This document shows, piece after piece, positions 270 through 50,944 of a stretch of DNA of 64,000 nt (positions within the stretch are counted from its first letter, which is position 1; every line of letters starts with the position of its first letter). Source of the stretch: Eledone cirrhosa. Lineage: Eukaryota. The position numbers were made by a program, and so were the translations under genes. The notes beneath the pieces are model-generated. The model was not told the origin of the DNA and did no database searches. It saw nothing but the letters and a program-made list of their open reading frames with translations. Location of the stretch: the NCBI GenBank assembly GCA_964016885.1, contig OZ024743.1, positions 101,804,001 to 101,868,000 of the forward strand. The letters run 5' to 3'.

Positions 270-1252
270 CTTATCTCTTTCTCTTAATTTCGAGTATATT
301 TTTTTGACCGGCCACCTTCCTGGTGGCAAGGTTGTAAAAGAAAAGAAATTGTCATCCCTTGAATCGCAAGAATGTTTTGCAAATTTTGAAGGTGCCAGCT
401 TTCGCAGACATTTGTAGACTATGAATTAGGGAGCTGCGCTCTTTGTCCGCAAATCCAAGTTCAGTCATACCTTGGTCCAAGCGGGTTGGTATATAACCCG
501 TAGCTCCAATAATGATGGGTATGAAGCTAAAGGTGTATCTTGGATACTGGATTTGTAAACTCCTCATCAATGGTCCGTAGATGTCCTCCTTCTCCTGTAT
601 TTTTCTGACAACGTTTACATCAAGTGGGCAGCTGATCTCCACAACAGAACACGTTTTCAATGTGTGGTCCCAAACAACAATATCAGGCCGGTTGTGCTTT
701 AATTTGGTGGCAGTTTTTATTTTCAGGTTCCACCAGTATTCCTTAGAGCCATCTGTCTCAATATATTTTTCCTCGTTTGTTGTTAATTTTGTTTTCCGAA
801 GTGCTTTCCAGATGCTTCTAGCTATTCCATTGTGTCTCATGGGGAGGTAGTAGCGAGATGACATTGTTTCGCAGCTGGCAACAATGTGGCTTACATCCTC
901 GATCTTTGTTTTACATAGCCTACATTTATTGTCAGCTGATGGCCTTCCCCCTTTTGTGCAGCAGATATTTAGTAGGGAGTTCTTGTTCCTGTATTACATA
1001 GAGATATCCCTCAAGGTATGATGTCATAAACTTGTCAGAACTCCATGCCAGGCTTTTTGAGTGGTTTATCCCCTCTATGGTCTGTTTTACGTCTCAAGTA
1101 TCCATCTACAACTTTTTCTGTAAATTGGTCGATTTTTTCATCTTGTTTGAACATTAAATAGGATCTTCCGATTTTTCTGGGTGAGAGATTTATATCAGGC
1201 TTTATTCCATATCTCTCCTCCAGATCAGTGGCTATTCTAATGATATATTTTT
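270..1252 (-). mobile_element. 5'-truncated R4/Dong-type non-LTR retrotransposon (family A), frameshifted 3' part
   Basis: ORF 352..864 has a restriction-like endonuclease motif (HNRPDIVVWD...VVEISCP...KEDIY) preceded by a CCHC knuckle. It is near-identical to the copy at 2250..3394, and its 5' end abuts (TATG)n. Confidence 0.85.
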
Positions 1253-1325
1253 GTATGTATGTATGTATGTATGTATGTATGTATGTATGTATGTATGTAT
1301 GTATGTATGTATGTATGTATGTATG

Positions 1326-2185
1326 TTCTTCTGGTTTTATAATTTCCCAAATTTTTGCCAATAGAGAGAGAGTCGGTTTCTAACATAGACACAATACTCT
1401 CATTGGAATTTACACATCAACTAGGTAGATATGTATGCATGCATGTGTAGATATGGATGTTATTGTATGTGTGGATGTGGATGTTTTTAGTTGTATGTGT
1501 GCATGTGTATACGCAGTTATTAGATGCAAAATGTTTGGAATGTTTTACATAGTTTTACTGTTCTATTAATGGATTGTACTTGTAAGTTCCTAACTAGTTG
1601 TGTTCTTTCTGTTCCTGTGAAGCCCAGCTTCTCAAGATATGTACTGAGGCAGTTACTAACATATCCCAGTGCCCCAATAATCACAGGCATAAATCTGAGG
1701 TATAATCAGGGTGGAGTATCTGCAGATTTCTCATCAGTACTGCATAAATATTCTCCTTTTCACTAATCTTTTATATTATATTGGCATCTGCTGGACAGCT
1801 AACTTCCACTACTCTGCATGCCTTCTTTTCCCTGTCCCATATCATAATATCTGGTTTGTTATGCCTGCATTTTATTGGGGTTTTTACTGGAACATTCTAC
1901 TAGTACTCTTTCATATTGTGTATATGTATGTCTTCCACATTGCTGTAGCTTTTAATGTGTTTATTATCGAGGCTATCTTTTCTAAGGATTGAATTGTACA
2001 GTGTTTTGGCCACTACATCATGCCTCATAGGTAATAGTATCGCGATGACATCTTTGGAAAGCTGCTTATGACATGGGTGACATCTTCGAAATTAATTCTG
2101 CAGAATCTGCACTTGTTATCACATCTAGGTGTTTTGCCTGCATCCCTATCTCTTTTGTGAATCAGGTTTTTCGTGTTGATTTCCT
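1326..2185 (-). mobile_element. 5'-truncated R4/Dong-type element, second diverged family (B)
   Basis: Minus-strand translation gives QEINTKNL...DNKCRFCRINFEDVTHVISS...MSSRYY and downstream FMPVIIGALGYV...VKLCKTFQTF, paralleling the family A C-terminus. It is flanked on both sides by (TATG)n. Confidence 0.8.
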
Positions 2186-2249
2186 GTATGTATGTATGTA
2201 TGTATGTATGTATGTATGTATGTATGTATGTATGTATGTATGTATGTAT

Positions 2250-3394
2250 GTTTTCTCTTTCTCTTAATTTCGAGTATATTTTTTTGACCGGCCACCTTCC
2301 TGGTGGCAAGGTTGTAAAAGAAAAGAAATTGTCATCCCTTGAATCGCAAGAATGTTTTGCAAATTTTGAAGGTGCCAGCTATCGCAGCCATTTGTAGACT
2401 ATGAATTAGGGAGCTGCGCTTTTTGTCAGCAAATCCAAGTTCAGTCATACTTTGGTCCAAGCGGGTTGGTATATAACCCGTAGCACCAATAATGATGGGT
2501 ATGAAGCTAAAGGTGTATCTTGGATACTGGATTTGTAAACTCCTCATCAATGGTCCGTAGATGTCCTCCTTCTCCTGTATTTTTCTGACAACGTTTACAT
2601 CAAGTGGGCAGCTGATCTCCACAACAGAACACGTTTTCAATGTATGGTCCCAAACTACAATATCAGGCCGGTTGTGCTTTAATTTGGTGGCAGTTTTTAT
2701 TTTCAGGTTCCACCAGTATTCCTTAGTGCCATCTGTCTCAATATATTCTTCCTCGTTTGTTGTTAATTTTGTTTTCCGAAGTGCTTTCCAGATGGTTCTA
2801 GCTATCCCATCGTGTCTCATGGGGAGGTAGTAGCGAGATGACATTCTTTCGCAGCTGGCAACAATGTGGCTTACATCCTCGATCTTTGTTTTACATAGCC
2901 TACATTTATTGTCAGCTGCTGGCCCTCCTCTTTTGTGCAGCAGATATTTGGTAGGGAGTTCTTGTTCCTGTATTGCATAGAGATATCCCTCAAGGTGTGA
3001 TGTCATAAACTTGTCTGAACTCCATGCCAGGCTTTTTGAGTGGTTTATCCCCTCTATGGTCTGTATTTTACGCCTCAAGTATCCATGCACAACTTTTTCT
3101 GTAAATTGGTCGATTTTTTTATCTTGTTTGAACATTGAATAGGATCTTCTGATTTCTCTGGGTGAGAGATTTATATCAGGCTTTATTCCATATCTCTCCT
3201 CCAGATCAGTCGCTATTCTAATGATATTTCTTTTTTCATGGTCATAAACCTGGGCAAGATGGTTGCCAACCTTTTTCCTCTGTTGAAGGTGTTGCTTCAG
3301 TGTTACTATCCGGGTCTCATATGTTGTTAATATTGATTTTAGACCCCGGCCACCTTCCTTGCGTGAGAAGTATAGCCTATCCACATCACCATTG
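2250..3394 (-). mobile_element. 5'-truncated R4/Dong-type non-LTR retrotransposon (family A) with open 350-aa C-terminal ORF (2332..3384)
   Basis: RLYFSRKEGGRGL post-RT motif, AIQEQ, CRLC...HIVASC zinc knuckle and PD..E.K restriction-like endonuclease. (TATG)n lies at both junctions. Confidence 0.9.
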
Positions 3395-3409
3395 ATGTAT
3401 GTATGTATG

Positions 3410-3443
<34 letters not shown>

Positions 3444-3516
3444 TGTATGTATGTATGTATGTATGTATGTATGTATGTATGTATGTATGTATGTATGTAT
3501 GTATGTATGTATGTAT

Positions 3517-4039
3517 GTGTCAGGTCGCTCTCGAGTGCTACTGGAAACATGTAACGCAGTACAATCTGTCTCATGGTCGGGTCGTCGGTGACTAAACCGG
3601 CAACCCTACCAAGCTACCTTGGCGAGGAGGGTGATATTTGGACACCCTCTGTGATGAAATACAAGACCCGGCAAAGGGCGGAGAAACTCATCAGAGTCAA
3701 CGGCATCCAAATAGTATTTTTTTTTACCTGGGAGTGAAAGGTTCCCAGTTGTTGTCACAACACCTTTCTAGGAGGGGGAATCCCTGAAAAAAAATACCTG
3801 TGGCTTCGGAGGCGACCGATGATGTTGACCAGTTCCCCTTTTTGGGTGGTGTTTTCGATGCTCACAGAATGGGATTGGTCGAGTGCAAGGCCTTTCCTCA
3901 CTTATAAAACCTTCAAAGCGCAGGCATTGCTTGTTTAGGATATGTTACAGGTTCGTGTGGCTGGCCGTAGCCTAAAATGGCACCAAACTCTATAATCTGA
4001 CAAGCGATTGCAATACTCTAAGCAGAGCTTTCAGCAATC
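3517..4039 (+). mobile_element. Non-autonomous RTE-derived element (5'UTR-like part plus short 3' tail)
   Basis: Colinear homology with 14517..14930. It ends in ...GCAATCAT(GTAT)n, like the RTE 3' end at about 5100 (GCAGCCATCAT(GTAT)n). No ORF. Confidence 0.55.
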
Positions 4040-4151
4040 ATGTATGTATGTATGTATGTATGTATGTATGTATGTATGTATGTATGTATGTATGTATTTA
4101 TGTATGTATGTATGTATGTATGTATGTATGTATGTATGTATGTATGTATGT

Positions 4152-4721
4152 AGAGTTGGTTAAAGGAAAACGACCGCCACATAAACCAAAAAAGAGGTAT
4201 AAGGATTCCTTGAAAGCCTCTCTGAAAGACGCTAACATCTCTGCTGATACATGGGAAAATATTGCTGCTGATCGTAATAAATGGAGAAAGACTCTATATG
4301 AGGGAAAAGTTGCCTTTGAGGCATCTCGAATCGCACACGAGAAAGTAAAGCGGGATGTGAGGAAGGGCATTGCTGTTGCACTTCCAGACGGCGAGGGTCC
4401 TCCTATGGTGCTGACATGCAGCGTCTGTGCGAGACTCTGCCTAAGCAAAGCTGGACTCGAAAGTCATCTTCGCAGTCATAAAGTAAGACCAGTGGTTGAC
4501 TACCAGGCTGCTGTTGGAGATGCTACTCATCATGCTTGCCAAACATGTGGTAGAGAATGTAAATCAGCAGTAGGGCTCAATCGACATGCAAAAGTACACG
4601 AACCCCAACCACAGCCGACTATTCCCAGTGAATGTTTTGGTTGCCGACTCTGTGCAAGACATTTTAGATCATTGGCTGGGCTAAAAAGCCACATTCGATC
4701 GCAGCATTGTTAGTTGCTATC

Positions 4722-15137: not shown

Positions 15138-15259
15138 CTGTGTGTGTATGTATATATATACATATATTTTTATGTGTATATCTATATATGTGTATATGTG
15201 TATATCTATATATGTGTATATGTTTGTATATGTTTGTATATATATATATATATATATGT

Positions 15260-15630
15260 ATTAGAAAGTGAGGTTTTCTTTCAAAATGAAAAATAACCGA
15301 AGTGTCCTACACGAGTGAAAGTATAAAGAAAAACAGATGAAATCGAAAATGCAACTGCAGTCTTACTTAAAAAAAAATATATATATTTATTAGGTTCCTT
15401 TACCGGTTTCGCTGTTCTTCTGCTTTTCAAAAGTAGAGTTGAGATGGAGGGTCTGTGGTTTTTCTCACATCTGTAAGAAAAACGACAGATGTGAGAAAAA
15501 CCGCAGGCCCTCCATCTCAACTCTACCTTTGAAAAGCAGAAGACCTGCTAAACCGGTAAAGGAACCTAATAAATGTATATATTTTAAAAAAAATAAGACT
15601 GCAGTGGCATTTTCGATATCATCTTTTATT

Positions 15631-15635
<5 letters not shown>
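15260..15635. mobile_element. Fold-back pair of pseudo-LTR ends of the PLE at 37381..41600, each with a degenerate family D hammerhead (15398..15433 minus; 15527..15562 plus)
   Basis: The arms are mutual reverse complements and match 37385..37600 and 41390..41600. Confidence 0.85.
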
Positions 15636-15728
<93 letters not shown>

Positions 15729-21914: not shown

Positions 21915-24730
21915 TGCCAGGCCAGGGATTTCTGGAAGATGTCCATAGGCCTCGGTCTGAAAGTTCTCTTGATGAGAGCGAACATCTGATCGTCTTCGAC
22001 GCCCAGGGTCTCCCGGAGAACGCCAAGCTCTTTCCCTCCACTAGCCCTCTATAGAACGCCGAGGTGGATGTTCCACCGATACCAGTGCCCAGCTGGTAGG
22101 GGTGGTGAGCGCTTGGAGATACTCCAGCTTCCAGGCGCTAACCCTCGGTCTTTTCCTGATCCAGGACTGCAGCTCAGTCAAGGAGACGAGCTGGGGAAAA
22201 GCGCGTCAGGCAAACGGCGACCACACCTGTTCACCGTCAAAGAAGCACCAGAGATGTCGCAGCCTCAGCGCATGTTTGCGCATCATCAGCCATGGCATGC
22301 CTAGTCATCCACGCAACGGGTGTTGACAGCAAATGGATCATCTGACCATGGGAGCACGTCCCTTCCACAAAAGGCGGAAGAGAAGGCGCTCCATTTGGTC
22401 AGAGTTGGGCGGCGACAAGGTACGAGGGTCAGGCGGTAGCAGATGATGGACGCTATGTACGCATTCTCCCCCTGCGTCCGACCTTTCAGAGACAGCCTCC
22501 TCTCGGCTCATTTCTGGGTGAGAGAGGCCAGCAGGCTCGTCACCTTGCTCCAGTTTTTCTCCATCTGGAGGTCCGAACCGAACCAGACCCCGAGCAATTT
22601 AACCGGTCCTTCCGTCCAGCTCCCGACGACGCTGTCGGACGGCATGGACTTGCCTCTCCAGGTGCCGAGTTGCAAGCCCACCGACTTTTCCTGGTTTATC
22701 TTTGCTCCTGTAACCTCTTCGTATTCCTTGAGTGCGGTGCCGAGCATCTGGACGTGTTTGGTGCTCAACACCACCACGGTGACGTCGTCGGCATAAGCTG
22801 ACACGGATCACCCGCATCCCAGTTCCCGTGGGACCGCCCTCATCGCCTCCAATTTGTACACTAACGGCTCGAGGGTCAGTACAAGAGAGACGAGAGGGGG
22901 CAACCCTGGCAGACCGAGCGCATGATACTGAAAGGCTGCGACAGGTGACCATTCACCATCACAATCGAGCAGATGTCCCTGTGCATCGCAGCGATCCAGC
23001 CCCTAAAAACGGGCCCGAAGCCGGCCGCCTCGAGGACCGCAGCCAGGTACCGATGCTCGACCGTATCAAATGCTTTAGATAGATCCAAGTTGATCAGGGT
23101 CCCACCCGTGCCAGGTTCCTTATCCAACCTCTCTATGATGTATTGCATTCGATGGAGGTTGTCGTGGATGGGTCTGTCCGGGATGGATGCGCCTATCCCA
23201 CCAGATCACCGACGACAAGCGCCAATCTCTTTGCTAACACCTTGGCCAAAATCTTAAACTCTACGTTTAGCAGAGTTATGGGCATGAAGATGTCTATAAC
23301 GTCCCCCTTGTTCGGGTCTTTTCTCAGTAGCGTCACCGCTCCCCGGCTCACAAAACTGGGAATGCTTCCGTTCTGCTGTCAGTTGCAGTAGACATCTGAC
23401 AAGAGGTCACTGAACAAGTCTGGCATATACGCATAAAGCTCGTAGGGCAGACCATCCAAACCTGGAGATTTACCCCTCGTGCAGTCAGACATCGCTTCCC
23501 GTATTTCACCTGCTGTTATCGGCTTTTCGCAGCACTGCGCTGATGTCGTCAAGAGCCGCGGCAGTCCGTCGAGGTATGCACCGAAGTCCATAGTCCGACC
23601 GGCCCGCCGCCGCTCCCGAACAATTGAGGAAAGTGCTGTTGAAAAGCCGCACACATCTGCTCGGTTTCGGGCAGCATGCGCCCGTTTTGATCGGGCAAAG
23701 ACCGACTTTTGGCCTTGTTGCCACGTCGCGCCTTCCCCACCCGGGCCCATTGAACGGCTTTCGTCCCCTCGTGTCTTAGAGCCCGCGCTCTAGCTCTCAC
23801 AACGCAGCCTTCATGCTTTGCGTTGAAGAATTGGTCGAGTGCCAATCTCGCGGCAAGCACGTCAGTTGCGATGCCTGTCCTAAACGCCTCTTCTAGCTTT
23901 CTAACTAACTCTTCCTCTACTCTATTTTCCTCTATCACTACTCCTTTGCTAAACCTTATTGATTCTACTCTAATAGCCCTTCTCAGGGTAAACCACTACC
24001 TGCTGTTGACGATCGCACCAGTCAACACACGCTTAACTAATTCGCTAATCCGGTCTCTTTAAGCTTTGCGCGCCTAGAACGACGTGTTCAGCTTCCAGTA
24101 GCCGGGCCCTTACATATGGAGTCTCAATGAGTCAACTTCACAGATCACAAATTTATGGTCCGTGTAGTCGACTACTTTAAATTGTGGACAACCTACACTT
24201 ATCTGTTTCCCTACAGAATACCCTATCTAAATACGATCTGGATGACTCGATGCGGTTTGCCCATGCCCACATTGGCACATTCGGATAATCCAGTCTATAC
24301 CTGTCAGACAGTTCAAAACGTATGTGCAGGTTGTTGAGGCTTTTACTCCCTCCTACTCTGTCTACTAGCCCCACATAATCCCAACGTGCATTTAGGATAC
24401 CGTTCCAGTCGCCCAGTAACACTAATAAACAGGACGTTCCAAGAAAGGTCTCTAGAAGTCTGAAGAAATCTGGCCGTCCTGCCCTTGTTGGGGCGTAGAC
24501 GGCTACTAGCCTGAAAGCATTGCCTTCGCTGCTGGTCACGTCCAGCACCACCGACTCTGGCTCCAGGAAGATGGCTCGTATGCCGAGATCCAAGCCTCTT
24601 CGAAAAAGCACTGCCACCCCTCCACCCGATCTTGGATGGCTGGGAGATAGGTATACATCGTAGCCGCCGAAGATAGGTGCGAAGGCTCGTGCTTCGGTGA
24701 TTCTGGTCCCGCTGATGACCACCACATCTA
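21915..24730 (-). mobile_element. Degraded Tx1/L1-type LINE ORF2 (APE endonuclease + RT)
   Basis: APE motifs (GGGVAVL, VAVYAP, LLGDWN, SYLDR) at 24177..24725. RT motifs KSPGLDGLP, NLDLSKAFD, QGCPLS and SAYADD lie in successive frameshifted ORFs. Confidence 0.9.
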
Positions 24731-25439
24731 TGCGAGTGCCTCGATGCGCTCCTGGTCAGTCTGTATTAGCATTTGCATGCCTATTCCTGACCAGTTCTCT
24801 CTTCCCAATCTCTGTATTTGCAATATGGTGGTCTTCTCCTCGATTCCTGCCGTCCAGACGCAGCCAGCCAAGGTATGGGCACGTCCGGTGCAATTTGTAT
24901 TGTTGCTGTTGGTGTTGTCGTTGTTTATTTCCTTGTTAGTGGTGTTAATATCATTGTTGAATTTGTTGTCATTTTTTTCTGTTGTCTGTATTTTGGTTGT
25001 CGCTGTTATTGTTGGTGTGGTAATATTTTCAAAATGAATGTCCTCTGTGTTGCCTTTGTTCACGTTGTTTGTGGTGGTGTCACACAACAGCGGACATATT
25101 ACTAGGGGGCGTGGCTCAGCCATGTTTCTTTTTTTTTCAAATAATTTTAAAAAGTAAAATGTTCAAATATTTGGGCCAAAAGGCCCAAATATTATACTTT
25201 CCCCTTCACAGGGCAAGGTCTAAGGGCTTATATCCCTTACACAATAAGAAATATTTAACAACAAATAATTTTAACAGGCAAATAAAGCGACTTACTGGGA
25301 GCGAACAAAAAGCGTCCGAACAGACCGGTAATATTAATAATAATAATAATAATAAAAATATATATATACACATACACACACACATATACATATCTACACA
25401 CACACACACACACACACGAACACACACACAATAACAATT

Positions 25440-33540: not shown

Positions 33541-34105
33541 TTATATGAAATATAAGAATCAAAGAACTGTTCAAAACATTATTGTGCTTACAGCTGTTTC
33601 CTCCAAACCGAGGTTTGGATTCTTCGGAGCAATTTATTAATGAATGGACAGTTATATGACCTCCTTTTCAGCCAAGAGACATACCGATACATATGCAAAT
33701 ATTGTGGGTCAACATTCATTACAGCATTTAGAGTGGCAGTACACACTTCGAGATTACATTCATAATAAAAGGTACAATCAAAAATCAAAAATACAGGTTA
33801 AAATGCAACATGAAGATAAGCGGTTATATAGTGCAAATGTTATATGTGTGGCAAGCACGTGCGTCTTGATTGTACCTTTTATTATGAATGTAATCTCGAA
33901 GTGTGTACTGCCACTCTAAATGATGTAATGAATGTTGACCCACAATATTTGCATATGTATCGGTATGTCTCTCGGCTGAAAAGGAGGTCATATAACTGTC
34001 CATTCATTAATAAATTGCTCCGAAGAATCCAAACCTCGGTTTGGAGGAAACAGCTGTAAGCACAATAATGTTTTGAACAGTTCTTTGATTCTTATATTTC
34101 ATATA
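33541..34105. mobile_element. Near-perfect non-coding fold-back element (~240-bp arms, ~85-bp spacer)
   Basis: 33541..33780 and 33866..34105 differ at only a few positions. Confidence 0.9.
34016..34062 (+). ncRNA. Type-I hammerhead (family I), U4C variant; mirror copy 33585..33631 minus
   Basis: TGCT CCGAAGA A TCCAAAC-CTCG-GTTTGGA G GAAA CAGCTG T A AGCA. Confidence 0.7.
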
Positions 34106-34506
34106 ACTGCTCTGTAAATCATCTGATGTTTTTACATTGAGCTACTTAACTTACTGGTAATAAGCTAGTAATACATTACTGCCTACCACTATTTAGGGTT
34201 TGTATAAAAAATACATATAACTGCTAAAGTCTTTTGTATTTTCATAACCATAAATAGTACAATTAATACTATATATTTATATATATATTTATATATATGT
34301 ATATATATAATTATATATATATGTATATATAAAAAATAAGAAGACATTATATGAAGGTTAAAGAACACTTGTGAATAGTGCAGTTTTAAATCAACATATC
34401 AACATATTTTATTTTATCTGATGAAAACACAAATCTTATTGCATGATGATATTTGTTTTTGAATGGCGCATAATAAAATACATGGAACTCTTTTAACCAT
34501 CTTTTG

Positions 34507-34571
<65 letters not shown>

Positions 34572-34591
34572 TAAATAGTATATATATATAC

Positions 34592-35862
34592 TATACTGTA
34601 TGCTTAATTAAAAGCATTTCGAAGACCTTACGCTATTGTTTGAGAGTAGTGCCAGTCTCACTTACTTTAAATTTTCAGCAAACAGGGGAGATAAAGCTGA
34701 CAGAACTCTGTTTCGTACTTTTTGGTACTTATCAAAGCGATGCACTCCACCTCTTTGCTGAAAATCATGAATTTTTGTTTCTTATAGAATTTTAGAAATA
34801 ATCAGGAACTGATTATACAGAGCGGTTGCCAGTCAAGCAGAAATTGAAAATTAGAATTGGTGCTCTGAAATAGCCATATATATATGAATGTATATATAGT
34901 TTATTTTGCAATACACTGTATGCTTAATTAAAAGCATTTCGAAGACCTTACACTATTGTTTTAGAGTAGTGACAGTCTCATTTACTTTAAATTTTCAGCA
35001 AACAGGGGAGCTAAAGCTGACAGAGCTCTGTTTCGTACTTTTTGGTACTTATCAAATCTAAGTACTCCACCTGTTTGCTGAAAATCATGAATTTTTGTTT
35101 CTTATAGAATTCTAGTAATAATCAGGAACTGATTATACAGAGCGGTTGCCAGTCAAGCAGAAATTGAAAATTAGAATTGGTGCTCTGAAATAGCGATATA
35201 TATATGAATGTATATATAGTGTATTTTGCAATACACTGTATGCTTAATTAAAAGCATTTCGAAGACCTTACGCTATTGTTTTAGAGTAGTTACAGTCTCA
35301 CTTACTTTAAATTTTCAGCAAACAGGGGAGATAAAGCTGACAGAGTTCTGTTTCGGACTTGTTGGTACTTATCAAAGCTAAGTATTCCACCTGTTTGCTG
35401 AAAATTTGCCAAAAAGTACGAAACAGTGCTCTGTCAGTTTTATCTCCCCTGTTTGCTGAAAATTTAAAGTAAGTGAGACTGTCACTACTCTAAAATAAGA
35501 GCGTAAGGTCTTCGAAATGCTTTTAATTAAGCATACAGTGTATTGAAAATTACTCTATATATATATTCATATATATATCGCTATTTCAGAGCACCAATTC
35601 TAATTTTCAATTTCTGCTTGACCGGCAATCGCTCTGTATAATCAGTTCCTGCTTATTACTAGAATTCTATAAGAAACAAAAATTCATGATTTTCAGCAAA
35701 AAGGTGGAGTACTTAGCTTTGATAAGCACCAAAAAGTACGAAACAGAGCTCTGCCAGCTTTATCTCCCCTGTTCGCCGAAAATTTAAACTAAGTGGGACT
35801 GTCGCTATTCTAAAACAATAGCGTAAGGTCTTCGAAATGCTTTTAATTAAGCATACAGTATA
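34592..35862. repeat. Tandem + inverted array of a 320-bp hammerhead-containing unit (retrozyme-like)
   Basis: About 2.5 units on minus then about 1.5 units on plus. Equivalent motifs lie at 34695, 35015 and 35335 (exact 320-bp period). Confidence 0.9.
34695..34739 (-). ncRNA. Type-I hammerhead (family J), U3:A8 core; further copies 35015..35059 minus, 35335..35379 minus, 35715..35759 plus, half copy about 35409..35439 plus
   Basis: Consensus AGCT TTGATAA GTAC-CAAAAA-GTAC GAAA CAGAGCTCTG T C AGCT. Confidence 0.85.
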
Positions 35863-36089
35863 GTACATATAGTATATATATATACTATATATATATATTA
35901 TATATATATATTATATATATATATATATACAACAAAGGAATTGTGGTAAGGAACCAAATGGACCATAACGCACCAGAGTACTCAATACTTAGGGTAGTAG
36001 AGTGAGAAATAGGAAAAAGTATGACTCCGACGGCAGAGCTCAAGCCGTCTCGACGGCTATTTCTGGGCGAGTCCAGAAATAGCAGCGTC

Positions 36090-36190
36090 GCGAGTACTGG
36101 GCAACCTCTCTAATGATTTTTGAGGCAAGCCAGCACACTCGCAGCGTTGCCCCGGGTGATGGCGAGGCTGATGCGCTGAAATATTGTTTT
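36090..36190 (-). mobile_element. CRE-type non-LTR element extreme C-terminal fragment
   Basis: FQRISLAITRGNAASVLACL resembles the conserved CRE/RLE terminus. Confidence 0.6.
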
Positions 36191-37362: not shown

Positions 37363-37380
37363 TCACTTTCTAATATATAT

Positions 37381-40300
37381 ATATTAGAAAGTGAGGTTAA
37401 TTTACAAAATGAAAAATAACCGAGCTATCCTACACGAGTGAAATTATAAAGAAAAAAAGATAAAATCGAAAATGCAACTGGAGTCTTATTTAAAAAAAAT
37501 ATATATATATTTATTTGGTTCCTTTACCGGTTTCACAGTTCTTCTGCTTTTCAAAAGTAGAGTTGAGATGGAGGGTCTGTGGTTTTTCTCTCATCTGGTT
37601 GGTCTTTGAATGTTACTTGTTTTATATGGAAAAATGTGGCTTGAAACGCTAGGTTTTTAGAGAAGTAATTTGATTGGTTGGTCAATAAGTATAATAAATT
37701 TCGCGCCAGTTCGCGTTACAAAGTTCTTCAAACAAGAGGAGGTTGTTTTTTCATATATGAGTGAAGTTTGGTTGGTTGATGTAGTCACGTGAATAAGCAC
37801 GTCAGCTTTCGCGCCAGTTTGTTTGAATTTCTTTTTACTTAAAAAAAGGGGCTCACGAAGGCTTTTTTTTTATAAATGTAATTTGATTGGTCATAAATGA
37901 AATTATGGCTGTCATGTGAACAAGTTCATTAAATTTCAAATACAAACCTCTCAGCCCAACAAGTTAAAATTCTCTCCAAAGGACTGAAATTCACACCAAC
38001 ACCACAATACTCTAATCTCAATGAGGTAAATGACGATATCTCACACTTCTGTAGAAAATTACGTCTCACAGAGGCATTCTTTGACAAGGAGAATAACGAC
38101 CAATCAATTGTACGGAATAAAAGCAGCTAAAACCCAACATAAGGTAGAAACAGAGTTCTGAACAAATTTTGTGACCACATAGCTACTTTCCCATACCATG
38201 AACTACCGCAACCTAAACCCAAACCCAACACGAGTCGGAGGGAATGGGAGATTATCCATGAACTAAAAAACAATACGGACATTATAATTAAGGAAGCGGA
38301 CAAGGGAAGTACTGTTGTCATTACGGATGCTGAAAAATATAAACATTCTATGTTCTCTCTCTTACAAAATATTAATTACTATGAACGAGTAAAAAACTAC
38401 CAGCAATAAAAAAACAATGACCAGATTAAACACACTGACTTGTCGATACCAGGAAGACTTAACTAAAAAGGAACGCGATTATTCAACACATTTTGAATAC
38501 AAAACCAGCAACCTTTATAGACTTCCGAAAACCCACAAGTGTAAAATAATTGTAAACAATCCACCTCAGCCTGTGTGAACACACAATACCCCACATACCT
38601 TAAATTAAGACCAATTGTAGCGGGCCCACAATGTGAAACACACAGACTGAGCAATTTTATAGACATACTGCTAAAACCAATTCTCAAACACATACCAAGT
38701 CTTGTAAGAGACGATTTGGACCTCTTAAACCACCTCCCCAAACATGTCAACAACGACACTATTATTGTGTCTTTCGATGTAGTGAATCTCTACACAACGA
38801 TCCCACACCAATACGGACCAGAAGCAATAGGATTCTGGCTAGAGAAATATCCCAATGAGATGCCTGGCAGAATAGAAAAAAAGCTTCATCACCGAGGGTT
38901 TAAAATTTATCTTACAGAACAACTTTTTTTTATTTCGATGGCAGTACTTACAAGCAAATATCGGGGACTGCGATGGGTACAAAAGCTGCTCCAACTTATG
39001 CCAACTTAGTCATGGCATACTTAGAAGTCCAGATATATGAACAGTCCAAATCAAAATACGGATTGAACTTCCCCAAATATTTATCAGAGAATTGGAAACG
39101 TTACTTGGATGATTGTCTCATTCTTTGGTCCCACACACTCGACCAACTGAAGGATTTCAACAATTTAATTAACGGCATCAATAACCACATCCAATTCACA
39201 ATGGAATACAGCCAAGATCAACTTCCATTTCTGGACATCTTAATCTTAAAAAAAGACACAAATATTGAAACTGACATACGCTACAAACCAAACAACAATA
39301 CCTGCTATTCACCTCTAACCATCCAAAGCACACGAAGGCGAACATTCCTTTTAACCCAGCAAGAAGAATTTGCACAATTGTCTCCAGTTATGAAACGCGA
39401 AATAAAAGACTTCAAGAATTAAAGGAAATTCTACTCGAAAGACAGTACCCACCATTACTAATAAATAATGGAATGGAAAGGGCTAAAGCAATAGACATTG
39501 ATGAATTACGAAAACAGAAACAAATTCAAGGTATGTCCAATATTCTATAATATATCTCAACACACAACCCAAGAAATGCGGAAGCTTACAACACTATTCA
39601 CAAGAACATCCCACTATTGAAACAAGACCCAAGAATGAAAAAAAAACCTTGAAACACACAAAATAATCAAAAGCAAAAGACAAACGAAATCACTGAAAAC
39701 ATTACTCACCAATGCCAAATTACCTATCACAAACCCACAACCAATTGCCAAAAAATGTGGTCGCTCTAATTGTGGAACCTGCACTCATCTCATTGAAGGC
39801 AACACGTATACATTTCGACCAGGAGAACATTTTGCTGTAAAAAATCACTTCACTTGCTCATCAAAAAATCTAGTTTATGCCATTAAATGTAAAGGATGCA
39901 ATGAAGATTATATAGGACAAACTAAACTGACACTCAGAAACAGAATGATAGTTCATCGCCAACAATTACGAGATCCAACCACGAGACAGATACCACTAAG
40001 CGCACATCTAGACATATTCGCAAGTAATAAGACACCCAAATTCCAAGTCTTCCCATTTTACCTTTGCGCTGACAATACAACAGAACAAATACGAATAAAT
40101 AAGGAATATGTTTATTCAAAATTATAGACCAGCATTAAATATGGTTTAATATACATTATGTCAACACAATAACATGCTAACCATCCAAACAGACACATAC
40201 ACACACACATAACGCCTTCTACTTTAGAAAATAAAAACCCGAACTAAATAAACCTTAACGTTTGCGCTGACAATACAACAGAACAAATACGAATAAATAA

Positions 40301-41600
40301 GAAAAATATATTCATTCAAAAATATTTCTACTAACGGAATAATTTTCCTACACACACACACACAAAATATATATATTATCTCCATCTTCACATGCTAACC
40401 TTACTCCCACACACACATAACACCCATACACACACACATACCACCCCCCACACACATATACCCCCCCCCCCCAGACACAACCCCCTCCCCCATTTCTACT
40501 AATAGAATCACGTTCCTACACACTATAAATATATAACACACACAAAATATATAACACACACAAAATATATAATTTCTCTCCATCTTAACATACTCCCCCA
40601 CACACATAACACCAATACATACACACACACACAACTCCCACCCCCATTTCTACTAATAGAATAATCTTCCTACACAGACACACACACACAAGCACACAAA
40701 TAAAAATACATATCTCTACTTTATTTATTTCAATAGAAAGCCTCAATTCTGACACCCCAGCCTACCAGCCATATTCACTGAACCAGAACAATTCTCCCCA
40801 TCCCATTTTTCTTGACCATTATCTTTTGTTTGGCACAACATTCTCTAAAAGGCTACAAAATAAATTCCCAAATCTGGGCGCGTAATCTTATGTACTTGTT
40901 CACGTCATAATTTCATTTATAACCCATCAAATTACATTTCAGCACATCAATCATATTCAGAACAACTCTCTCCATCCCTTTTTCTTGACCATTATCTGTT
41001 GTTTGGCACAATATTCTCTAAATGGCTATAAACAAATTCCAAAAACGGGTGCGAAATTTAATGTACTTGTTCACGTGACAGCCATAATTTCATTTATAAC
41101 CAATCAAATTACATTTATAAAAAAAAGCCTCACGTAAGCCACTTTTTTTTAAAGTAAAAAGAAATTCAGACACAAACTGGCGCGAAAGCTGCATCAATCA
41201 ACCAAACTCCACTCATATATGAAAAAAAAAACAACCTGAGCCCCCCCCTTCTTTGTTTGAAAAACATTGTAGCACGAACTGGCGCGAAATTTATTATACT
41301 TATTCACCAACCAACCAAATTACTTCTCTAAAAACCTGGCACTTTGAGCCACTTTTTTCCATATAAAACAAGTAACATTCAAAGACTAACCAGATGAGAG
41401 AAAAACCACAGACCCTCCATCTCAACTCTACTTTTGAAAAGCAGAAGAACTGCGAAACCGGTAAAGGAACCAAACAAATATATATTTAAAAAAAAAAAGA
41501 CTCCATATGCATTTTCGATTTTATCTTTTTTCCTTATACTTTCACTCGTGTAGGACAGACCAGTTATTTTTCATTTTGTAAAAGAAATGTCACTTTCTAA
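37381..41600 (+). mobile_element. Penelope-like element (Neptune-like), degraded RT + GIY-YIG ORF (~37940..40150), bracketed by ~550-bp inverted pseudo-LTRs
   Basis: LSKGLKFTP, LRPIVAG, SFDVVNLYTTIP, MGTKAAPTYANL, RYLDD, LPFLD, CGRSNCGTC linker and VYAIKCKGCNEDYIGQT. Bases 37381..37935 are the reverse complement of about 41053..41600. Confidence 0.92.
41431..41466 (+). ncRNA. Minimal type-I hammerhead (family D), U3:A8 core; mirror copy 37522..37557 minus
   Basis: CTT TTGAAAA GCAG-AAGAA-CTGC GAAA CCGG T A AAG, in the PLE pseudo-LTR on the sense strand. Confidence 0.75.
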
Positions 41601-41834
41601 TATATATATATAAATATGAATTGGCGAGAATCGCATTTCGGCTATTGGAAATTAGCGAAAAACAACTTCCGAGATGTGTGGCAAGCGCTCCATAGAAACG
41701 AGTGTACTAGAGCAAAAACACACGTTAAAAGGCCAAACACACTGAGATGATGGTTAAACCATTAACCGCAAAGCCATATAAGCGAACAAGCTATTCGGGT
41801 CAAACAAATAATAAAATATGATTGAAAATTATAT

Positions 41835-43289
<1,455 letters not shown>

Positions 43290-50882: not shown

Positions 50883-50944
50883 TTTTGTCTGATGAAGGCA
50901 TACCATATTTTTAATATGATATCCCTGAAATATATATAACGAAA
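50883..50944 (+). ncRNA. Type-I hammerhead (family L)
   Basis: TTTTGT CTGATGA AGGCATACCATATT-TTT-AATATGATATCCCT GAAA TATATA T A ACGAAA. Confidence 0.8.

Follow-up and report, generated by a model that had tools for sequence, protein, structure and literature searches.

A dispersed 320-nt hammerhead repeat with Penelope-type insertion ends in Eledone cirrhosa: a probable retrozyme copied in trans

The window, that is the whole stretch of 64,000 nucleotides of Eledone cirrhosa DNA that was analysed, contains a tandem repeat at 34554-35405 with a period of 320, 2.7 copies and 93% matches, and an inverted continuation starts at 35409, in agreement with the initial annotation, which had described a 320-bp periodicity on the minus strand and then a flip to plus. 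The left arm (34595..35405) comprises approximately 2.5 units of the 320-nt repeat with the RNA sense on the minus strand, and the inverted right arm (35409..35859, plus strand) approximately 1.4 units. Unit phases were numbered from window position 35231 (phase 1) counting down, with the predicted cut between phases 213 and 214. On this scale the 5' end of the left arm lies at phase 147 and that of the right arm at phase 187, and both arms have their 3' end at phase 317. The arms meet head-to-head at a 3-nt spacer (35406..35408), and the inverted segments 34556-35045 and 35409-35898 are 91% complementary (range given, 91-93%). (TA)n target tracts flank the array on the left (34507..34574) and on the right (35889..35929), and no stop-to-stop frame of at least 120 aa overlaps positions 34592-35862, so the ORF-less, (TA)n-embedded setting described earlier holds.

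Each unit carries one U3:A8 type I hammerhead, encoded on the minus strand in the left arm and on the plus strand in the right arm. The earlier proposal of one such motif per 320-bp unit was borne out by the period and by the motif positions, and exact 28-mers of the family were found far above controls. All three stems of the motif are 4 bp long: stem I is followed by the core UUGAUAA, stem II (loop of 6 nt) by GAAA, and stem III, whose loop is palindromic, by GUC. Stem I folds as had been claimed, extending via an internal loop into a long outer helix that includes the distal GGAG/CUCC pairs. The core U3 is located at 34735, 35055 and 35375 (minus) and at 35719 (plus), and cleavage is predicted after C17 at 34699, 35019 and 35339 (minus) and at 35755 (plus).

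All four full-length motifs at the locus carry lesions. The core is intact at 34671..34764 (minus; extended stem I; predicted cut between 34699 and 34698), where the first stem I pair and the internal loop are mutated, at 34991..35084 (minus; cut between 35019 and 35018), with one stem I mismatch, and at 35311..35404 (minus; cut between 35339 and 35338), with one stem II mismatch. Li et al. define an array as "active" by at least two consecutive complete hammerheads; here three consecutive motifs have an intact core, each with a stem mismatch. The full motif annotated at 35715 is indeed present (35691..35784, plus), but it carries a change of U16.1 to C at 35754 together with a stem II mismatch and is predicted to be inactive. 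The half motif noted near 35409 was located at 35409..35465 (plus), at the start of the 5'-truncated arm; only the 3' half is there, and without the 5' core strand it cannot fold alone. A single unit folds with a z value of -4.3. Rfam gave no match in the window at the gathering score; below it, weak HH9 matches (E 0.096-1.3) and hairpin-driven microRNA matches appeared.

Several other repeats lie in the window. At 33541-34270, a two-armed fold-back of another family sits in (TA)n, with arms 99% complementary and two different 3' ends. This family is young (2582 candidates, top copies 97-100%), and on C12 its copies in tandem are spaced by about 4.15 kb and lie near an RT-like frame; Pfam returned no match for the RT-like fragment, and the repeat is probably the end of an autonomous Penelope-like element (PLE) of another clade. 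The segment 34335-34506 is the 3' end of a further repeat family, in whose TA tail the array sits. Within it, a hammerhead-like CUGAUGA motif with a long stem II (34416-34470) is mutated here and looks intact in L098, L105 and L106; a similar motif at 50889 (plus) was also found in L101. On the other side of the array, 35930-36160 is an antisense fragment of a frequent TA-associated family with 44 relatives among the fetched stretches, one copy of which (L006) has a minimal hammerhead. The segments 352-3519, 3976-4713, 23379-24765 and 42122-42505 presumably resemble RTs or endonucleases of other retrotransposons and a Tc1-like transposase.

The genome (3.0 Gb) was searched for further copies, and the 320-nt unit was found at 1784 candidate places, the top 40 of which were scored and are 96-100% identical. 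Exact 28-mers from the core and from the 3' side matched 407 and 2015 times, respectively, with 0 control matches. A single-locus duplication is thereby contradicted: the family is dispersed, with varied multimer lengths and copies that span single arms of 65 nt up to multi-lap arms. Mean divergence from the commonest letter was 3.5% over 231 segments. Tandem units of 304-322 nt, with 242-305 letters in common with the window unit, could be cut from 13 of 19 candidate loci. The window array is one old, decayed insertion of this family, and there is no sign of a host function for the locus.

For a sister family, whose core is the canonical CUGAUGA, 2720 candidates were counted. The related ORF-less subfamilies, split by core, stem II and stem III letters, number at least five; all have unit-length tandems, and the stem I internal loop and a 5-6-nt loop II are kept in every one of them. 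In an alignment of 22 hand-picked motifs, 11 of the 32 hammerhead pairs change on both sides, reflecting a few subfamily events rather than 22 independent ones; these include the core pair 3:8 (U:A in 14 rows, C:G in 7), three stem II pairs, one stem III pair and five outer-helix pairs. In the same motifs 92.8% of the cells were paired, compared with 38-51% in slid controls. The covariation of pair 3:8 and of all stems argues that catalysis has been kept, as far as aligned sequences can tell. U3-A8 is a known core covariant of Schistosoma PLE hammerheads (PMC4209133). The variant is common in the present genome, where at least two autonomous PLE families (L061-L088 and L075-L104) likewise have minimal U3:A8 hammerheads whose stem III is palindromic.

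Local satellites have also grown from the repeat, at L091 (C1:268923244-268931168), L284, L313 and L176. They include arrays of at least eight units and a 165-bp deletion-derivative array without ribozyme. L091 is an 8-kb higher-order array with a recurring deletion, and later higher-order duplication at the DNA level was seen in some arrays (L091, L318). A 3.1-kb motif spacing at C1:268.92 Mb, considered as a possible ORF-bearing partner, proved to be the higher-order array, with no ORF.

In order to characterize the insertion ends, 131 loci were sampled along the genome, in order of position, with two patterns located 3' of the cut site, which leaves the 5' extent unselected, and their arms were mapped against 14 natural units. 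Duplicates and five array or complex loci (L171, L176, L200, L284 and L313) were omitted from this survey. Of the 239 arms, site a (phases 30-37) accounts for the ends of 102 and site b (phases 60-72, about 26-29 nt away from a) for those of 93; the other 44 end elsewhere, many of them being short rearranged pieces. Among the 195 canonical ends, 156 run straight into (TA)n. There were 88 head-to-head pairs, of which 55 had both ends canonical, and 52 of these 55 combined one a with one b (p 1.5e-12). The same combination was found in the sister family (10/11), in a best-hit set (12/15) and in a core-pattern set (6/6), sets that partly overlap. At the 88 head-to-head junctions an overlap of at least 2 nt was seen in 42 cases, a blunt joint in 21 and an insert in 25. 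The permuted start points predicted earlier were therefore found for the 5' ends, which are scattered, but not for the 3' priming ends, which are fixed at two sites. That one of each is used suggests that the two DNA ends are primed in a coupled and asymmetric way.

The window copy itself departs from the rule. In its own unit, site a (phase 36) corresponds to 35196 and site b (phases 62-65) to 35170-35167, and the "tail" between these two usual 3' ends is present only internally, at 35167..35196 (minus), with further copies at 34847-34876 (minus) and 35578-35607 (plus). Instead, the unit breaks off after phase 317 in either arm. A third common start site at this position was looked for in 22 rows (20 loci) read of 135 pattern matches, and nothing similar was found. 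The copy also exceeds most others in length (the median arms of the family are 251 and 301 nt). A 20-bp palindrome at its left end (34575..34594), with a second copy at 35869-35888 behind a 9-nt partial copy, is atypical for the family and is possibly a target-site duplication or a rearranged shared terminus. The odd ends could reflect a target-site duplication, or one end may have been copied onto the other.

This end structure was compared with that of autonomous elements. The genome contains 10597 GIY-YIG-related candidates, and one family (L092/L093) combines an RT and GIY-YIG ORF with a minimal U3:A8 hammerhead and 11532 exact 28-mer matches. It appears to be of the Neptune type, judging from the CX2-5CxxC linker before GIY-YIG in its window copy, a linker given for the Neptune and Nematis clades (PMC8557442). 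The window holds a broken near-full element of this kind with RT and GIY-YIG fragments (37378-41617) and a short two-armed copy (15255-15637). The Neptune-type element has two 3' ends, 63 nt apart, and 15 of 15 head-to-head loci, counted by hand, combined one of each. At site b, this element and the 320-nt repeat have the same seven letters directly before (AT)n. Its 5' ends were better defined: 20 of 40 arms, equal to 20 of the 30 that reach that far, stop at -202 to -218 (also counted by hand). In the copies inspected (L321-L350; L093:2547-3245 reverse) this stop, where half of the arms end, lies about 216 nt upstream of site b and 70 nt before the ribozyme cut, and is likely a transcription start in the pLTR. 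A few arms stop at or near the cut (-143, -145, -152), and the ORF starts about 25 nt after site b.

Comparable ends have been described for PLEs elsewhere. Craig et al. report an inverted 5'-truncated copy, a tail of 30-40 bp that is often confined to one end and, for Naiads, (TA)n targets (PMC8557442), and the rotifer elements of Arkhipova et al. are alike, with an inverted truncated copy and a tail (PMC3846280). Frangieh et al. place the tail between two adjacent internal RT start sites, with both strands cut and extended at AT-rich targets (PMC11167929). Because the autonomous Neptune-type element makes the same fold-backs, mostly with one defined 5' end, the fold-back is the ordinary mark of Penelope integration. 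The initial annotation had taken the fold-back and the non-integer number of units as a sign of rolling-circle copying, and this argument has to be given up. Its proposal of mobilisation by a PLE enzyme fared better and is the most likely one, given the Penelope-type ends in (TA)n; we are highly confident that the repeat is a retrozyme-type non-autonomous element moved by a Penelope-like enzyme. That this particular Neptune-type family is the helper is plausible, although we would put the chance somewhat below even.

Chimeric loci were considered as proof of the helper. In L200, a 14.4-lap arm is joined to an inverted Neptune-type arm in what resembles a joint insertion, and in L006, L111, L176 and L188 a repeat arm abuts other PLE-like arms head-to-head. 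The five partners come from as many families, and the nearest relatives of the partner in L111 are 99.3-99.5% identical whereas those of the repeat arm reach 97%. The loci were not accepted as proof on these grounds; later insertion with target deletion is as likely an explanation.

Taken together, the array is an old insertion of an ORF-less repeat, likely a retrozyme that was copied in trans by a Neptune-type Penelope-like RT/GIY-YIG enzyme, probably from circular RNA. In such a cycle, transcripts of tandem copies would be cleaved at one hammerhead after another and the resulting monomers ligated to circles; monomer circles have been demonstrated for coral, mussel and axolotl retrozymes (PMC7229834). 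The enzyme would cut both strands of a (TA)n tract, and from each DNA end reverse transcription would be primed at an internal start site, which is a for one end and b for its partner. Both cDNAs would run through the ribozyme, often beyond one lap, and stop at scattered points. Finally, the two cDNA ends would be joined head-to-head, mostly at short overlaps, to give the fold-back.

The nature of the template was addressed through the 5' ends of the arms. In the 131-locus survey, 166 arms approach the cut site to 20 nt or less, and 148 of these continue past it; 83 of the 195 canonical arms exceed one unit and 27 pass a second cut site. With a monomer cleaved at both of its ribozymes, arms could not grow beyond 143 or 169 nt, and the hammerhead-cut linear monomer was rejected as template, with only 6 of 195 5' ends at phases 210-218. 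No dominant 5' stop was detected, the highest first-lap stop rate being 0.085 per 16 nt up to phase-equivalent +190, and there was a modest excess of 5' ends at phases 222-230 (21/195, scan p 0.0008), which could reflect stalling in the long helix or the point where transcription begins. Read-through, arms of more than one unit and the missing dominant stop support a circle, and a long uncut transcript of a young array would fit them too. In L200, the 14.4 laps of one arm are each about 6% diverged, with few shared changes in a mostly star-like pattern, so that their sequences look as if all laps had arisen in a single event. For arms and laps of the same locus the differences amount to 8-9% of the subfamily sites, compared with 40% between loci. 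A same-molecule test by locus-private variants was uninformative, since only 0-4% of them are common to arms or laps, and the copying of one RNA by both ends is not supported by it.

Between the two templates that remain, a circular RNA is somewhat favoured, and an uncleaved linear multimer, transcribed from a long source array and integrated in the same Penelope-type manner, is less likely. In the latter case the hammerhead would be a protein-binding fold or a late cutter. This would agree with the predicted folding: of 127 near-intact copies, 106 have a lowest-energy fold in which the strand of the catalytic core is paired with stem III, and adopting the active fold would cost a median of 4.3 kcal/mol more, in energies that leave out tertiary contacts. 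According to these models cleavage may be slow or absent, and the competing fold could either protect a circle or mean little cutting. Li et al. found that only one of nine tested retrozyme dimers cleaved (10.64898/2026.07.22.740005), and for the Anolis Poseidon element the template used in vitro was predominantly uncleaved RNA, and mutation of the ribozyme did not abolish insertion (PMC11167929). Long genomic arrays (L091, L200, L284 and L313) could supply linear multimers, and the 5'-end excess at phases 222-230 could be their start site. However, a defined start leaves a strong stop in the Neptune-type element, where 20 of 30 at-risk arms end within 17 nt, and the repeat shows at most 0.085 per 16 nt. 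Moreover, no common upstream flank, such as a source locus would donate, was present among 96 arms with non-repeat 5' flanks. The covariation of pair 3:8 and of all stems, together with the circles known for other animal retrozymes (PMC7229834), also stands against a linear template. Circular folds of six natural units gave z values of -4.6 to -7.6 (30 shuffles each).

Two further explanations dispense with an independent retrozyme. The unit might be the pseudo-LTR of an autonomous Penelope-like element, the arrays being its truncated partial tandems. The end architecture is identical, 24 of 57 Xenopus retrozyme families are homologous to known TEs, 21 of 22 of which are PLEs (Li et al., 10.64898/2026.07.22.740005), and only 50 of the 10597 GIY-YIG-related candidates were inspected. 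Nevertheless, this origin is very unlikely for the present copies: arms longer than 320 nt always enter another unit, and all of the subfamilies have unit-length tandems. No autonomous element with a homologous pLTR was found among the 50 GIY-YIG-related stretches, and no ORF-bearing flank in common was detected; 96 arms share no sense-strand flank upstream, and 72 non-canonical ends share no continuation at matching phase downstream. The two unit matches near GIY-YIG ORFs (L062 and L092) are separate insertions in TA tracts. The earlier assumption that the repeat is not attached to a PLE ORF as an ordinary pseudo-LTR was thus upheld over this sample; in line with the published model, the unit may have originated from a pLTR that is now extinct. 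Amplification without RNA, as a MITE-like or satellite repeat whose inverted ends are terminal repeats, could account for the inverted repeats formed by the outer ends and for the later higher-order duplication in L091 and L318. It is largely refuted by the a and b asymmetry, the ends being usually unlike and the centre a variable truncation junction. The range from single 65-nt arms to multi-lap ones and the RNA-structure covariation also oppose it, and it is regarded as extremely improbable.

Within the preferred reading, a retrozyme copied in trans by a Penelope-like enzyme, a more specific arrangement is proposed only tentatively. An asymmetric dimer of a Penelope-like RT-endonuclease would act at a double-strand cut in (TA)n, one subunit starting at a and the other at b of a single circular ribozyme RNA, and both would roll for up to 14 laps before head-to-head fusion of the cDNAs. 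If this were true, the insertions would prove, at the level of the genome, that an animal circRNA undergoes rolling-circle target-primed reverse transcription, and the conserved inactive fold would shield the circle from re-cleavage.

The mode by which animal retrozymes move is still a proposal, and in the 320-nt family the mark of Penelope integration is seen in individual copies, which makes the genomic evidence for mobilisation by a Penelope-type enzyme unusually clear. Autonomous elements that bear this mark are co-resident, and exact RT start sites can be named for the family. The one-of-each use of start sites (52/55 in the repeat and 15/15 in the Neptune-type element) quantifies a feature so far called "often" or "optional". 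Two open questions become directly testable, namely whether a PLE enzyme copies the circle and why the tail is found at one end of inverted insertions. The 320-nt repeat is likely a parasite of Penelope-like elements.

Among known systems, EN+ PLEs of the Neptune/Nematis type resemble the family in their two adjacent 3' ends delimiting the tail, an inverted 5'-truncated second copy and a tail at one end (PMC8557442; PMC11167929). AT-rich or (TA)n targets, a type I hammerhead and the U3-A8 core variant, as in the Cercyon PLEs of Schistosoma, are also shared (PMC4209133). In contrast to these elements, the repeat lacks an RT or GIY-YIG ORF and a defined 5' end, has a full-size rather than a minimal hammerhead, and is not homologous in sequence to the pLTRs of those PLE families that were inspected in this genome. 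Chlamys/MRC1 of Chlamydomonas are likewise non-autonomous PLE parasites with head-to-tail multicopy insertions, but they have 3' sequence in common with their autonomous partner and belong to a clade without canonical hammerheads (PMC8557442).

The closest likeness is to the animal non-LTR retrozymes, a class reviewed in PMC6155905. Like these, the family has an ORF-less tandem unit within 150-450 bp and one type I hammerhead per unit (PMC7229834; 10.64898/2026.07.22.740005). Its ends, fixed at the 3' side and variable at the 5' side, are likewise not those of an LTR structure. Low GC, thousands of dispersed copies and co-resident PLEs are shared with the retrozymes of axolotl (newt satellite 2 type), mussel and coral, and a sister subfamily has a U-U mismatch at the base of stem II, as in axolotl HHR_Amex2 (PMC7229834). 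It differs from the described members in the U3:A8 core of the main subfamily, the 4-bp stem III with a palindromic loop and the outer helix of about 19 bp, and in its insertions, which are mostly of 0.3-2.5 units and often two-armed instead of long arrays. Circular RNA, putative in the present family, has been shown for those retrozymes (PMC7229834). In the portions of the literature consulted, the link between retrozymes and PLEs was drawn from the shared ribozyme, co-occurrence and pLTR phylogeny, not from insertion ends (PMC7229834; 10.64898/2026.07.22.740005), and a partial search found no paper on the 320-nt family or on insertion-end analysis of retrozymes. The motif has three stems and the core of a type I hammerhead, defined as CUGANGA/GAAA/UH or its U3-A8 covariant. 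The 320-nt family fits the class in every feature tested and, judged by these features, is a new member of the animal non-LTR retrozymes.
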